Below, piece after piece: positions 21,034 to 25,134 of a stretch of DNA of 64,000 bases. Position 1 is the first letter of the stretch. Every line of letters starts with the position of its first letter. The stretch covers positions 32,001 to 96,000 of the forward strand of contig JBGAGQ010000004.1 of the NCBI GenBank assembly GCA_044226625.1, given 5' to 3'. The DNA is from Thermoanaerobaculia bacterium (GTDB lineage Bacteria; Acidobacteriota; Thermoanaerobaculia; Multivoradales; UBA5704). The position numbers were made by a program, and so were the translations under genes. The notes under the pieces were generated by a model, which was not told the DNA's origin, did no database searches, and saw nothing but the letters and a program-made list of their open reading frames with translations.

Positions 21034-24000
21034 TCATCCCAAGAACCCGAACGTCTCCACCGCCCGTGCCCGTCCCTCCCCCGCGTCGATCCGTTCGATC
21101 TCGGCGAGGTAAGCCTCCTCGAGGTTCGGTTCGGCCAGGTCACCTTGGATCGGATCTCCGGGGCGGGCGACGGCGCGGACTTCGAGGCCTTCCAGGCGCC
21201 GGACGCGGGCGGTGACGCGGTAGCGATGGCTAAACGAGGTCAGATCGGAGTCAGCGAGGAGCGCCGAGAAGACCTGGCCTCGGGCTCTTTCGAGGAGGGC
21301 GTCGGGGGCGCCGTCGAAGCGGAGTCGGCCGCGGTGGATCAGAAGGATGCGCGAGGCCGCGGCCTCGATGTCGCTCGCTATGTGAGTGGAGAAGAGCACG
21401 ATCCTGTCGGCGGCCTGTTCGAGAAGGATCTGGCGGAAGCGGGCCCGCGATTCGATGTCGAGGCCGGTCGTCGGCTCGTCGACGATCAGGATCGGCGGCG
21501 CGCCGAGCAGCGACCGGGCGATTCCGACCCGCTGCCGCATTCCACCCGAGAAATCGCGTACCTTCCGGCCGGCATGCTCGGCAAGGCCGACCGCGGCGAG
21601 CAGCGTTTCGATCTCCGCAGATCGCCTTGTCGGATCGTCGATCCGCCGCTCACGCGCCCAGTGATCGAGGAACTGTTCGGCGGTGAAATCCGGATAAGCG
21701 TTGAACTCCTGCGGGAGAAATCCGATTCGTAGCCTGTAGTCCGCGAGGTTCTCCGGCGTGACCTCGACGTTTCGGAAGGAAACCGAGCCGCGAGTGGGCG
21801 ATAGAAGCCCCGTGAGCAGACGGAGCAGCGTGGTCTTGCCCGCGCCGTTCGGCCCGAGCAAGCCGGTGATTCCGGGGGTGAGCTCGAAGCTCACCTGCCG
21901 GAGCGCCCGGTGGCCCGAGGAGTAGGTCTTCGCGAGACTCCTCACGGCGATCCGCGGCGGATCCACGCCCACCTCCGCGTTCCAGGCGGGAGGATGTCGG
22001 CGGCGGCGGTTCAACTCAGGATCCCGGGCCTGAAAGCGAGCGACCGCGAGGAGCAGCGGCGGCACTACGAGCAGGGCGACCGCGAGCGCGACCGAACCGG
22101 ACACGGCGGCGACGCGTAGCGGCACGACCCAGCGCGCGCGGATGAAATCGGCGCCCAGGGTGGGAAGAAAGCAAACGAGCGCGACCGGCACGAGCGCGCA
22201 GGTGAGCCACGGCGTCTCGCGGCGCAGCTGGCGATACACGCGATAGAGGGAGTCGGCGCCCGCCGACCGGACTCGCCGGCCGAGCCCGGATCCCGCATCC
22301 GCTGCCGCGGCCACCGTGGCTGCCTCCGCCGCCTCCGCCGTTGCGGGGAGAGACAGGCAGAGACTCGCGATCAAGGCGAGAACGGACAACTCGTCCACCT
22401 CGCCGAGGGTCGCCGCAACGAGCGGCGTCGCCGCGAGGAGGCCTGCCGCGAGCGGCACCAGGGCGACCCACGCCGCCAGGATCCCGTTCAGGCGCCAACC
22501 GGCGACCGCGAACAGCAGCAGCGGCACGGCGAGGCCGAACGCGAGAAGCCGTAGCCGCTCTTGTCGCCAGTAGAGAAACGACAACCGCGGCCGTTCGAGG
22601 TCGACCCCGGCGGGCAGCCGCAGACGCTCGAGCCCCCGGTCGACGTCCTTCCGTCGCAGGACGCGGGCATCGCGCGCCCCCTCGTGGAAACGAACCTCGA
22701 TCGGCACCACCCACCGACCGGACTGGCGTTCGACCCTCGGGATCACCGAGTCTTCCCGCAAGGCGAAAAGCGCGGCGGGCACGACCGTCCGGTCGCCGAT
22801 CGGCAGCGGCTTCGAGAGAAGCGACGCCATCTGCGGGATCTCGCGATCGGGATCGAGCGCAGAGCCCGCAGGCACGACGACCAAGGACCGCGAAACACCC
22901 CCGAGACCGGGGGAGAGCGGCCGCCGAGAAGGGGCGGTGCTCGCCAGAGCCAGGGCTCGAGTCACCGCGTCGACGTCGGTTCGGGAGGCGCTCGGAAGCG
23001 GCTCGAGCGTGAGCAGGGCCGAGGGGGCATCCCAGCCCGTGATCGATCGCGAGCGGATCTTGGCGTCGGCCAATCGGCCGAGAATCCGGACGTAGGCGGC
23101 CGACAGGGCCTCGAGGTCGCCTCCGCGCAGGACCATGCGATACCAGAGCGCCTCCTCGTCGGCTTCCGCTCGATCTTCAAGCTCGGCGGCGAAGGCTCCG
23201 GCGCCGGCCGCCCCCGCCCCGGTCTCGATGCGTGCCGAGGCCGCCGCAGGAATCTCGTACCGGAGGGTGGTCGCGAGCGCGGCCAACCGGTCGGGGCGCC
23301 GGTCGCTCGGGCGAACCTCCACTCTGAGGTAGGCATGTCCGGCGCGGAAGCTGCTCCAGTAGCGTTCGATCGCCCCGGAGCGATCGAGCCGGAGCTCGAC
23401 CGCCCGCACCTGTGTCGCGGTCTCTTCGAGCGTCGCGCCTTCGGGGAGATTCATTCGAATCTCGAAGCTGCCGCCGTCGGGCGAGAGATCCCCCGGACGG
23501 GGAACGAGCGCGCCGCCATAGAGCGCAGCGAGCAGTCCGCACACGGTCCCGAGGACCAGCACGGCGGTGCCCGGGTCGCGCAGCGTCCGCCGTAGCCAAG
23601 GAAGCGGCCCGGCGGTCAGCGCGCGCCATCCGGCGACCAGGGCGCGGCGCGGCGAATTCCGAAATTCGGCGGAGACACTTCGCGACACCGAAGCCCGAGG
23701 GCCGCTCCCTGACTCCCCTGATCTCGCGGGCGGTAGAGCGGCGGCGAGGACTGCTGCGGCGGCGGCGAGAAACAGGGCGCGCGCAGGCTCGGAAAGCAGC
23801 GGAGAAAGAGCGGGACCGGCGAAGGCGACGGAGGCCGGCAACGTCGCGGCGGCCAAGGCCGTGGTCAGCGCGAACGACCGATAGCCGCGGCCCCCTGATC
23901 GGCCCAGTCGGAGAGCGACGGCCGGGAGCGCCGCCGTAGAGCCGAGAAGGAGCGCCACCAACGTGGTCACATCGAGCGGAAGCCCGGCGAGCCAGAGCGC

Positions 24001-25134
24001 GTTGACGGCTGCCGCGAGGCCAGCCGGAAGGGCTAGACCGAGGCTCCACGCTCCCGTCGTGCCGGCGAGCCGGTAGCCGAGACCGGCCGCCACGACCGCA
24101 GCCGCGAGCAACCCGAGCGCCATCCTGAGGAGCAGAGATCGGAGCGGCTCGGCCTCGCTCCAATCGATGGTGCCGCGGACGTGGAGGGAACTCTGGGCGA
24201 GCTGCTCGATCTGGAGCCGGAGCGCGCGGTCGGCCGCGAGAACCGACGCCCCCTCCGCCCGCCAGACGAACAGCGCGCGGGCGGGTCGGCCGCGGTAGCG
24301 GACCTGGAATTCGGGCGGCGGGTAGCGCTCGCGTACCGCGGCCACGGTGGAAAGCGGAGCCGCGCCCGTGGCGAGAGAAGCCCCATCCGCCTCCTCGATC
24401 CGGCTCGACGGCGCCGATCGGAGATCGGGCCGAGCTCCCGGCCAAGGTACTGGCACGCGAACCAACGTCTCGGGCGCCGCCGGCTCGACGACGACCGGCA
24501 TTCGAAAGTCCCCGCTCCGCGCCGTACCAAGATCGCCACGGCGGAACGCGCCGTCCAGAATCTCCCGGATTCGGCCGACGGCCGCCGCCGGATCGCGGAG
24601 GCCGGCCGCGAGCTCCACCCGGATCTCCTCGCGCCGGAGCCCGAGGGCATCCACCGAGCGGACGCCGGGAACGCCACGCAACTCCTCGGCCGCCGCCTCG
24701 GCCGCGGCGTCGGACGTCGCGCCGGATAGCCAGACCAGCGCCAGCAGATGTCCCTCCACTTGAGAGGCTGGATCGACAGATAGCGTCGCACCTGGTGGCA
24801 ACCGCCGCCGCAACGGGGCGAGCTCCGACAGGAGGCGCGCCGCCTTGCTCTCCGGATCGGTGCCGGCGGCGAAGCGGACGCGGATCTCTGCGCCGTCCGA
24901 GCGTACTTCGCCCGCGCTCCCTCGCACCCGGCCGAGCGAGCGGATCGCCGCCTCGATCTCTTCCACCCAGTCGCGCGCGACCGAGGCCGGTTCGCGCGCC
25001 TCAGGCAGCGCGAGGGCGATCGTCAGCTCGGGGAAGCTCCGCCGCGGGAGATAGTCGAGCGACAGCCGGGAGAACGAGACGCTCCCCAGGATCAACAACC
25101 CGAAGGTAGCCACCCGGCGGGCGATCGGCTTCAT
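21034..25134 (-). CDS. Degenerate RND (AcrB-like) permease fused to C-terminal ABC ATPase
   Basis: RND-like N-terminus (LDYLPRRSFPELTI, MNLPEGATLEET) with two TM clusters; last ~300 aa have GPNGAGKTT, FSGGMRQR, LIVDEPTTGLD, FSTH; one continuous ORF. Confidence 0.8.
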   Translation of the reverse strand: MKPIARRVATFGLLILGSVSFSRLSLDYLPRRSFPELTIALALPEAREPASVARDWVEEIEAAIRSLGRVRGSAGEVRSDGAEIRVRFAAGTDPESKAARLLSELAPLRRRLPPGATLSVDPASQVEGHLLALVWLSGATSDAAAEAAAEELRGVPGVRSVDALGLRREEIRVELAAGLRDPAAAVGRIREILDGAFRRGDLGTARSGDFRMPVVVEPAAPETLVRVPVPWPGARPDLRSAPSSRIEEADGASLATGAAPLSTVAAVRERYPPPEFQVRYRGRPARALFVWRAEGASVLAADRALRLQIEQLAQSSLHVRGTIDWSEAEPLRSLLLRMALGLLAAAVVAAGLGYRLAGTTGAWSLGLALPAGLAAAVNALWLAGLPLDVTTLVALLLGSTAALPAVALRLGRSGGRGYRSFALTTALAAATLPASVAFAGPALSPLLSEPARALFLAAAAAVLAAALPPARSGESGSGPRASVSRSVSAEFRNSPRRALVAGWRALTAGPLPWLRRTLRDPGTAVLVLGTVCGLLAALYGGALVPRPGDLSPDGGSFEIRMNLPEGATLEETATQVRAVELRLDRSGAIERYWSSFRAGHAYLRVEVRPSDRRPDRLAALATTLRYEIPAAASARIETGAGAAGAGAFAAELEDRAEADEEALWYRMVLRGGDLEALSAAYVRILGRLADAKIRSRSITGWDAPSALLTLEPLPSASRTDVDAVTRALALASTAPSRRPLSPGLGGVSRSLVVVPAGSALDPDREIPQMASLLSKPLPIGDRTVVPAALFALREDSVIPRVERQSGRWVVPIEVRFHEGARDARVLRRKDVDRGLERLRLPAGVDLERPRLSFLYWRQERLRLLAFGLAVPLLLFAVAGWRLNGILAAWVALVPLAAGLLAATPLVAATLGEVDELSVLALIASLCLSLPATAEAAEAATVAAAADAGSGLGRRVRSAGADSLYRVYRQLRRETPWLTCALVPVALVCFLPTLGADFIRARWVVPLRVAAVSGSVALAVALLVVPPLLLAVARFQARDPELNRRRRHPPAWNAEVGVDPPRIAVRSLAKTYSSGHRALRQVSFELTPGITGLLGPNGAGKTTLLRLLTGLLSPTRGSVSFRNVEVTPENLADYRLRIGFLPQEFNAYPDFTAEQFLDHWARERRIDDPTRRSAEIETLLAAVGLAEHAGRKVRDFSGGMRQRVGIARSLLGAPPILIVDEPTTGLDIESRARFRQILLEQAADRIVLFSTHIASDIEAAASRILLIHRGRLRFDGAPDALLERARGQVFSALLADSDLTSFSHRYRVTARVRRLEGLEVRAVARPGDPIQGDLAEPNLEEAYLAEIERIDAGEGRARAVETFGFLG

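Follow-up and report, generated by a model that had tools for sequence, protein, structure and literature searches.

Introduction

Resistance-nodulation-division (RND) pumps are taught as strictly proton-driven and ATP-binding cassette (ABC) transporters as strictly ATP-driven, and the two serve as alternative inner-membrane engines of tripartite efflux. MacB, of the MacAB-TolC pump, has four transmembrane (TM) helices. A published review (PMC8277102) assigns the proton relay of AcrB to residues D407 and D408 of TM4, K940 of TM10, and R971 and T978 of TM11; the same review places the ATPase of MacB at the N-terminus and describes HAE-1 pumps as rarely heterotrimeric, citing MdtBC. Here, we describe the gene P0001 and the six-gene operon that it closes, located in a stretch of 64,000 nucleotides (nt) from a Thermoanaerobaculia bacterium (contig JBGAGQ010000004.1, positions 32,001 to 96,000; hereafter the window). 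P0001 encodes an RND-like protein fused on a single chain to a C-terminal ABC ATPase, and its RND-like part has lost the transmembrane proton relay, whereas the RND protein encoded directly upstream, P0002, keeps relay residues.

P0001 is a genuine fusion of an RND-like protein and an ABC ATPase

Pfam analysis of P0001 revealed two domains above threshold on one chain, ACR_tran (E-value 8.1e-16; 57.4 bits with a cut-off of 28) and ABC_tran (5.7e-32; residues 1078-1223). The ACR_tran match passed the gathering threshold, was confined to residues 2-175, and understates the RND part of the protein. The initial annotation of this DNA had described a single open reading frame (ORF) of 1366 amino acids (aa) with an AcrB-like scaffold followed by an intact ABC ATPase, and this description was borne out by the ORF, by the domain scan that it had proposed, and by the fold match described below. 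It had also suggested that the same fusion be looked for in other genomes. A homologue search with P0001 gave 245 matches at E<=0.001, and among the 120 of these that were listed, 110 carried both PF00873 and PF00005 (1187-1434 aa, 38-70% identity to P0001). The remaining 10 comprised nine shorter proteins with PF00005 only and one 'partial' protein with PF00873 only. An exhaustive phmmer search with residues 1-1050 of P0001 returned 374 cluster representatives at E<=0.001, 74 of them at <=1e-30. Walker A and SGG[MQ] motifs were present in 51 of the 73 representatives examined, including all 43 of at least 1146 aa; the other 22, without ATPase motifs, were fragments of at most 1101 aa, and two of these (P0129 and P0162) ended inside the first ATPase strand. 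No unfused variant of the family was seen among the 73 cluster representatives examined.

The reading frame across the junction was also continuous outside the source genome. A single frame ran through the RND-ATPase junction in all 16 metagenome loci that reached past the RND-like part, with no stop and separate start between the two parts; at one metagenome locus, L127, the frame stopped one codon short of the end of the tblastn match. A contig of 498 nt from a run of another study bridged positions 21831-22328 of the window, where the initial annotation had asked for mapped reads, with 17 substitutions and no gaps. The dataset with the best coverage of the stretch, X1, was left out of this count because it may be the source sample. 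The fusion was present in all eight genome loci as well. P0001 is a genuine fusion protein that has been kept by selection.

The genome itself contained one copy of a P0001-type gene. Matches of this type at E<=1e-20 were found in at least 11 of 151 genomes of the class sample and at least 3 of 201 of the phylum sample (the source genome included); both counts are lower bounds, as three to five candidates were scored per genome. The sources of the P0001 homologues were named Thermoanaerobaculia or Acidobacteriota. A further candidate for a second fusion, C84:109740-110633 ('open frame 1218') on the same contig, was rejected because it was only an upstream-extended ORF with ABC_tran alone.

The RND-like part has a predicted AcrB fold without relay residues

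A phmmer search of residues 1-1050 of P0001 against the PDB sequences was nearly blank, with a best E-value of 0.048, so profile and fold comparisons were used for the RND part. Alignment with hhalign of a 26-member P0001 profile, cut at residue 1050, to the profile of P0002 and eight orthologues gave a probability of 100 and an E-value of 1.7e-43 over 950 columns. The aligned span covered residues 1-1045 of the query and 7-1024 of the template, so that the two families matched end to end. An AlphaFold2 model of residues 1-1050, built with 72 sequences, had a predicted local distance difference test score (pLDDT) of 88.1 and a predicted template modelling score (pTM) of 0.85. Foldseek matched this model over its full length to AcrB, AdeB, AcrD, MtrD, BpeB, and CusA, with template modelling scores of 0.63-0.72, E-values of ~1e-38, and 13-16% identity. 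Residues 1-1045 of P0001 are predicted on these grounds to form a complete, very divergent RND protomer of the AcrB fold. Dozens of invariant or near-invariant residues were found in the RND part across family members down to ~35% identity, and the cytoplasmic stretch between TM6 and TM7 was variable and modelled with low confidence. Because of the AcrB topology, the C-terminus of the RND part, and hence the ATPase, would be located in the cytoplasm.

To examine the relay, the TM4, TM10, and TM11 equivalents were compared within the P0001 family and with the partner RND family. The titratable relay of AcrB (D407 and D408 of TM4 and K940 of TM10, with R971 of TM11) was not retained in the P0001 family. 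Asp, Glu, Lys, Arg, and His were absent throughout the TM4 core (residues 389-407) and the TM10 core (residues 916-933) in all 72 aligned members. The hhalign alignment placed deletions of five to six residues in the P0001 family exactly opposite the VDSSI of TM4 and the NNAIVL of TM10 in the partner. Prolines were conserved in both helices, P404 of TM4 in 57/72 members and P930 of TM10 in 58/72, and TM11 of the family read LYRxLRR, not RxRP..MT. The conserved charges of the family were located at helix ends (R409, D914/E915, E934, and R968); at the start of TM10, which would be its periplasmic end, E915 was present in 72/72 members and D914 in 68/72. The lack of an Asp in the TM4 equivalent and of an RxRP..MT motif, both already reported in the initial annotation, extended to the whole aligned family, and the chance that an alignment would show the relay residues to be kept did not materialize in any of its 72 members. 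The transmembrane proton relay has been erased in the P0001 protomer.

Residues W1002, P1005, and R1007 at the start of TM12 were also conserved, alongside D914-E915 at the start of TM10. By analogy with AcrB, the two groups should meet at the periplasmic boundary of the membrane, where they may make up a salt bridge or a functional site in place of the mid-membrane relay.

The ATPase retains a full set of catalytic motifs

The ATPase module of P0001 contained Walker A, Q-loop, signature, Walker B with the catalytic glutamate, D-loop, and H-loop motifs, and the four of these named in the earlier reading (Walker A, signature, Walker B, and H-loop) were all in place. K1100, Q1142, S1196-G1198, D1219, and H1251 were invariant in 26/26 aligned members of the P0001 family, and E1220 was kept in at least 90% of the 26, one row reading VDKPT. 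The linker between TM12 and the ATPase was conserved in the consensus of two alignments, and residues 1039-1046 formed a helix in the AlphaFold2 model. The best NCBIfam matches of the ATPase were of the GldA, DrrA, and NodI types, all below the curated cut-offs, and therefore only a subfamily is claimed for it.

A tree of 38 ATPase cores calculated with IQ-TREE resolved the fused ATPases (16 rows) as one clade with support of 100/100 and the ATPases of the type of P0007, the free ATPase of the same operon (8 rows), as another with 100/100. Both fell within a group supported at 99/98 together with three other ATPases of the same genome. One of these three belongs to a canonical ABC-2/M1 system on contig C133 (locus L112:4183-8802, plus strand), which consists of one ABC ATPase gene followed by a gene for a 1221-aa protein with ABC2_membrane_2, ABC2_membrane_4, and Peptidase_M1 domains. 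The flanks of the C133 system contained CHAT and trypsin-like genes upstream and a PolyA_pol/CBS gene, one ORF without a family, and a methyltransferase gene downstream; no RND or adaptor gene was found among these flanking ORFs. Kinship with the C133 ATPase indicates that the fused ATPase belongs to a subfamily that works with ABC-2 permeases. Among the neighbours of the two further paralogous ATPases, one weak ABC2_membrane_3 match was found. Judged by its motifs and relatives, the P0001 ATPase is thus most readily described as an ABC-2-type, catalytically competent domain under selection as an enzyme. In a second, quick tree, fused type A, fused type B, P0007-type, and Bacteroidota free ATPases formed separate supported clades, the branching order of which was without support.

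A sister family of larger fusions retains the proton relay

Among the weak matches of the search with residues 1-1050 of P0001, the 1587-aa protein P0235 combined a full-length ACR_tran domain (1.9e-184) with ABC_tran at residues 1314-1456, and ~280 residues with further hydrophobic helices lay between its RND and ATPase parts. When residues 1030-1587 of P0235 were used as the query, all 120 proteins listed carried both PF00873 and PF00005, and 109 were of at least 1500 aa. In every one of these 109, the TM4 Asp-Asn, the TM10 Asn, and the TM11 RxRP..T were invariant. The family is far larger than that of P0001; its sources included Bacteroidales, Marinifilum sp., Carboxylicivirga, KSB1, Zixiibacteriota, Krumholzibacteriota, Latescibacter, and Gemmatimonadetes, and its names in databases come from automatic annotation only. 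Since the ATPase coexists with an intact relay in 109/109 members, it does not generally replace the proton relay, and tethering is the simplest general role of the fusion.

Five genomes were searched, and in both of those with the gene, which were Bacteroidota, the operon comprised an ATPase of 298-318 aa, proteins of 1117-1159 aa, ~500 aa, and ~355 aa, a canonical RND protein, the fusion, and a protein of ~240 aa. Pfam analysis of one of these operons (L123) assigned ABC2_membrane_2 (3.2e-10) and Golvesin_C to the 1117-aa protein, an OEP channel and an HlyD adaptor to the next two, and no family to the last. A locus search with the full-length P0001 alignment had keyed on ATPase motifs and gave 80 generic ABC ATPase loci, which were kept out of all counts; two of them (L002 and L009) proved to be in genomes that carry the ~1570-aa fusion. 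In P0235, a string resembling the first ATPase strand seemed to precede four of the extra helices, as if a membrane segment had been inserted into the ATPase.

The operon combines RND, adaptor, and ABC-2-like components

The six genes are all on the minus strand and follow one another in the direction of transcription as P0007, P0006, P0128, the adaptor gene, P0002, and P0001. Successive genes overlap by 4 nt or abut, an arrangement that predicts translational coupling of the operon. The order was kept in 8/8 genome loci of the same class and in 13/13 metagenome loci with a full 10-kb upstream flank (21/21 in total), each with the P0007 orthologue first, the P0128 orthologue between the P0006 and adaptor genes, and two adjacent RND paralogue genes sharing one adaptor gene. 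The other six of the 19 metagenome loci were cut by contig ends, and the genes that fit appeared in the same order.

P0002 retained GLLVDSS in TM4 and RYRPIAMTT in TM11, as the initial annotation had stated, and an Asn in TM10. That statement was right and needs one qualification: in comparison with AdeB (6ows), the first TM4 Asp is kept, a Ser occupies the position of the second, and the Asn that of the TM10 Lys. This pattern (Asp-Ser, TM10 Asn, and RxRP..MT) was conserved in 9/9 orthologues. Alignment of P0002 with 21 distant canonical RND proteins from the phmmer search showed Lys in 6 of 7 'DD' proteins and Asn in 11 of 12 'DN/DS' proteins. As the combination of DN/DS with Asn is common among distant RND proteins, P0002 is an ordinary member of a large RND subgroup. 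The periplasmic adaptor, a membrane fusion protein (MFP), probably starts at M121 of the ORF 28202..29710, since this codon, at 29350, shares an ATGA with the P0128 stop, and a lipobox-like LLAAC comes after it; the adaptor is therefore probably a lipoprotein. The first 120 codons of the 502-aa adaptor ORF overlap P0128 in another frame and are probably not translated. No outer-membrane channel gene was found on the contig of the window, and all 16 OEP matches of the genome were on other contigs.

On the ABC-2 side of the operon, the best NCBIfam matches of P0007 were of the DrrA/GldA type and below the cut-offs. P0006 had no Pfam family at the default threshold and no Peptidase_M1 match; at E<=10, only ABC2_membrane_3 was found, with an E-value of 0.032, below its cut-off. 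PF12679 was present on 2 of 120 listed homologues of P0006, and the wording 'ABC-type transport system ... permease subunit' occurs in some JGI names. The AlphaFold2 model of P0006 had a pLDDT of 88.0, and Foldseek aligned it with IRAP, ERAP1, ERAP2, and APN over ~640 columns with E-values of ~1e-14 and template modelling scores of 0.33-0.35, normalised to the 952-aa query. A protein atlas gave 'ABC transporter permease/M1 family aminopeptidase' clusters at 0.96, which is taken as a lead only. HExxH was present in only 1 of 8 aligned orthologues. In the model, the C-terminal two thirds of P0006 adopt an M1 fold without a conserved HExxH, and the protein is not called a peptidase here; the M1-like domain would be periplasmic. 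A zincin active site in P0006 was considered and was unsupported, given the HExxH count and the lack of a Peptidase_M1 match. H626, W648, P649, E704, C564, and C588 were invariant in 40 sequences and might constitute a site of another kind.

P0128 lies in what looked like a gap between the P0006 and adaptor genes. It had no Pfam family, its hhalign comparison with P0006 was not significant (E 0.02, probability 2.35%), and it gave no profile match to P0235. A comparison with the 247-aa protein encoded downstream of a Bacteroidota fusion (E 0.0074, probability 5%, 145 columns) is likewise a lead only. P0006 and P0128 each contain an invariant ER(R)xG motif after the second TM helix, which would be a cytoplasmic coupling loop, and P0128 is probably a second ABC-2-like permease. 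Complex prediction with four chains (P0006 1-292, P0128, and P0007 1-232, with P0001 1052-1295 as the partner) gave scores of 0.27, 0.34, and 0.30 at a mark of 0.32; controls were not folded, and these values count neither in favour of binding nor against it.

Genomic surroundings

The coordinates of P0001, its parts, and the neighbouring genes are listed in Table 1. From 22000 to 33000, the G+C content was 0.70-0.74, compared with 0.65-0.69 in the flanks, with an AT skew of +0.12 to +0.30 on the plus strand; this composition may reflect the codon content of membrane proteins or a foreign origin. Just downstream of the operon, P0004 (1305 aa, 16320..20237, minus strand) contained Gly/Ser-rich stretches and only a sub-threshold C-terminal DUF4347 match.

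Table 1. Positions of the fusion gene, its modules and motifs, the operon, neighbouring genes, and the sister-family loci. Coordinates are those of the window unless a locus is named.
Feature	Coordinates	Strand	Remarks
P0001	21034..25134	-	1366 aa, ATG start; RND-like::ABC ATPase fusion; last gene of operon
RND-like module of P0001, residues 1-1050	21985..25134	-	12 TM helices, two large periplasmic loops (following TM1 and TM7); hhalign, AlphaFold2, Foldseek
TM4 equivalent, residues 386-412	23899..23979	-	no Asp
TM10 equivalent, residues 912-934	22333..22401	-	no Lys/Asn relay position; conserved D914-E915 at start
Linker TM12-ATPase, ~residues 1037-1057	21964..22026	-	consensus RWRxRDPEExRRRRxPPxW
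ABC ATPase module, residues 1058-1366	21034..21963	-	Pfam ABC_tran
Walker A GPNGAGKTT, residues 1094-1102	21829..21855	-	
ABC signature FSGGM, residues 1195-1199	21538..21552	-	
Walker B LIVDE, residues 1216-1220	21475..21489	-	
H-loop His H1251 (STH 1249-1251)	21382..21384	-	
P0002, ordinary RND permease	25131..28205	-	1024 aa; ACR_tran 1.1e-135, full length; 4-nt overlaps with both neighbours
Periplasmic adaptor (MFP)	28202..29350	-	NCBIfam RND_mfp 1.7e-34, above cut-off; Pfam HlyD_3
P0128, small multi-TM (6-TM) protein	29347..30042	-	231 aa; conserved ERRxGxLDLAL motif
P0006	30043..32901	-	952 aa; N-terminal multi-TM ABC-2-like part and large M1-aminopeptidase-like domain
P0007, free ABC ATPase	32898..33809	-	303 aa; Pfam ABC_tran 5e-26; first operon gene; 4-nt overlap with P0006
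Peptidase_M23 protein	33936..34796	-	directly upstream of operon
AI-2E family transporter	34927..36204	+	
AAA/PTPase/R3H protein	36165..37940	-	591 aa
F420_oxidored-type NADP oxidoreductase	20308..20961	-	directly downstream of fusion
SRP54 (Ffh)	14767..16104	-	
Sister-family fusion locus	L123:12553-17265	+	
Sister-family fusion locus	L124:13013-17818	+	

Discussion

A role for P0001 has to be derived from what was observed: a fusion with an AcrB fold, intact ATPase motifs beside a lost relay, and a conserved operon. We tentatively favour, at a little under an even chance, a bridging role: P0001 would be an RND paralogue that has no relay and does not pump, and through which one ATPase of an ABC-2 transporter is tethered to an RND/adaptor assembly. 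P0001 and P0002 would form one mixed RND trimer, as in MdtBC, with P0001 as a structural protomer that does not pump. In the ABC-2 transporter formed by P0006 and P0128, the two nucleotide-binding domains would be the ATPase of P0001 and, paired with it, P0007. The ATP-driven module would extract or process a substrate at the inner membrane and would thereby be held against the proton-driven RND/adaptor module, which would expel the substrate through an outer-membrane channel encoded elsewhere. In the P0001 family, the proton function would have stayed with the partner, and the ATPase-bearing paralogue would have shed the extra TM helices along with its relay. The occurrence of an RND-ATPase fusion in two families, each beside a second RND gene, an adaptor gene, a free ATPase gene, and genes for ABC-2-type proteins, argues, by Rosetta-stone logic, for ABC and RND modules that are in physical contact as they work. 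The tethering role also fits the six-gene order in 21/21 loci, as does the suggestion in the initial annotation that the subunit docks the RND protein and MFP onto the ABC-2 permeases. What we infer within this reading is which proteins touch and in what stoichiometry, what the substrate is, and in which direction it is handed over; the M1-like domain on an ABC-2 permease hints at a peptide or an envelope polymer as the substrate.

Several points weigh against the tethering role. The contacts among the six operon proteins are putative. In the canonical C133 system, two fused permease domains are served by one ATPase gene, and by analogy a P0007 homodimer could suffice, in which case the fused ATPase would have no necessary place in the ABC-2 module. 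The ABC-2 nature of P0128, a protein without a Pfam family and without a significant profile match to P0006, is unproven, and that of P0006 is suggested by a weak Pfam match and by analogy. Both ATPases, P0001 and P0007, have consensus sites, with nothing that marks an obligate heterodimer. The trees leave the sisterhood of the fused and free ATPases unsettled, and no claim is made on the origin of the fusion. The deletions in TM4 and TM10, the prolines, and the conserved linker could equally mean an RND-like membrane domain driven by the ATPase, and an outer-membrane channel gene is missing from the contig of the window.

The strongest competitor, although rather unlikely in our judgement, is an RND protomer powered by ATP. 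The fused ATPase would dimerise with that of a second P0001 or with P0007 and drive the membrane and porter domains through TM12 and the linker, in a mechanotransmission like that of MacB. This would account for the erasure of the relay in 72/72 members, where TM4 and TM10 show corresponding deletions and conserved prolines, for a whole porter and docking fold kept at high model confidence, for the invariance of all catalytic and dimer-sandwich motifs of the ATPase, for the short and conserved linker, and for the absence of an unfused variant among the 73 representatives. However, the ATPase stands alongside an intact relay in 109/109 members of the sister family, whose TM4 Asp, TM10 Asn, and TM11 RxRP..T are all kept, which weakens the earlier proposal that the protomer is powered by ATP. 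Moreover, the cytoplasmic face of the RND-like domain, with a TM6-TM7 stretch that is variable and modelled at low confidence, showed nothing like an ABC coupling helix; in a homotrimer, one ATPase would lack a partner; and the two ABC-2-like permeases of the operon already offer conventional docking sites. In its full form, this mechanism would make the relay-less protomer a true ATP-driven RND protein, in which dimerisation of the ATPase moves TM12 and the rearranged TM4/TM10 core and so runs the porter cycle without protons while the other protomer uses the proton-motive force. We consider this full form unlikely, slightly more so than the general one. If true, it would be the first efflux machine with both energy currencies in a single trimer, and the relay-intact fusions of ~1570 aa would be evolutionary intermediates.

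Two further explanations are improbable, to about the same degree. In one, the genes of two independent pumps for related substrates are merely fused, without a complex; the fusion only secures co-expression or equal stoichiometry, and the RND part is a decaying passenger. The canonical ABC-2/M1 system indeed works from one ATPase gene and without an RND protein, the interaction among the parts of the operon is conjectural, and the RND part is divergent enough for the best phmmer match in the PDB to have an E-value of 0.048. A decaying passenger, however, would not keep a complete AcrB fold (pLDDT 88.1) and dozens of invariant residues, two families far apart from each other carry the fusion, in both cases next to a second RND protein and an adaptor, and the gene order is fixed in 21/21 loci. 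In the other, ATP binding or hydrolysis would gate or assemble the RND/adaptor complex, with the ATPase acting as an energy sensor or an assembly clamp. A protomer without a relay cannot use protons, and nucleotide-dependent dimerisation of tethered ATPases could lock or release the trimer. On the other hand, the invariant Q-loop, signature, Walker B Glu, and H-loop are the full set of a turnover ATPase, whereas regulatory ABC-like domains are often degenerate, and no evidence pointed specifically to gating. A false joining of two genes by assembly error, frameshift, or pseudogene formation has a practically negligible chance: the source genome is fragmented (133 contigs, 5.53% contamination) and yielded no positive evidence of an error, and the artefact is excluded by the same open junction in 16/16 metagenome and 8/8 genome loci, the 498-nt contig with 0 gaps, and the 110/120 homologues with both domains.

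Two conserved families have an RND protomer and an ABC ATPase as one polypeptide, the sister family with hundreds of database members in several phyla and the P0001 family with the relay lost in every member examined. Under any of these mechanisms, a physical ABC-RND supercomplex or an ATP-coupled RND protomer is predicted, and either would be a new class of envelope-spanning transporter. The relay-intact and relay-less families are a natural experiment on how the RND conformational cycle is energised, and as the relay-intact family occurs in named Bacteroidota, for example in a Marinifilum record, genetics may be feasible.

Comparison with known systems

Public databases already contain RND-ABC fusions, named automatically, for example as 'efflux RND transporter permease subunit' and 'multidrug efflux pump subunit AcrB/ABC-type multidrug transport system ATPase subunit'. 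No paper describing or naming such a fusion was found in the full-text literature searched, outside which most subscription journals and the supplements lie, where a description may exist. The earlier remark that no characterised RND-ABC fusion was known agrees with this, whereas the architecture itself is not unique to P0001.

P0001 shares with the HAE-1 pumps of the AcrB, AdeB, and MexB type the 12-TM topology, the two large periplasmic loops, the fold, and an adjoining adaptor gene in the cluster. It differs from them in the absence of the relay residues, in the C-terminal ABC ATPase, and in an identity of only 14-16%. The operon resembles those of heterotrimers of the MdtBC type in that a pair of neighbouring RND paralogue genes goes with a single adaptor gene, in 21/21 loci. 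In contrast to MdtBC, the heteromer here is putative, and one of the paralogues lacks the relay and bears an ATPase. MdtBC is not known to have an ABC part.

As in P0001, the ATPase in MacAB-TolC and other type VII pumps is joined to a membrane protein whose periplasmic domain is large and which has an adaptor partner, and by this analogy MacB could serve as a model for ATP-driven mechanotransmission in P0001. A MacB-like fold for P0001 was considered and rejected, since its ATPase is C-terminal, its fold is the 12-TM AcrB fold, and the listed Foldseek matches were RND pumps.

The C133-type 'ABC transporter permease/M1 family aminopeptidase' system shares with the operon the ATPase subfamily (the 99/98 group) and an ABC-2 domain joined to an M1-like domain. 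The C133 system differs in having one ATPase gene, both permease domains on one 1221-aa chain, a recognisable Peptidase_M1 domain, and no RND or adaptor gene in its flanks; P0006 lacks a conserved HExxH.

The fusions of ~1570 aa share with P0001 an RND protein followed by an ABC ATPase on one chain. Their gene is the final large one of its operon, which also encodes a free ATPase, an adaptor, a second RND protein, and an ABC-2-type protein with a sizeable additional domain. In these fusions, however, the RND part is canonical with its relay intact, ~280 extra residues with TM helices precede the ATPase, an outer-membrane channel gene is included in the operon (L123), and the carriers belong to other phyla.

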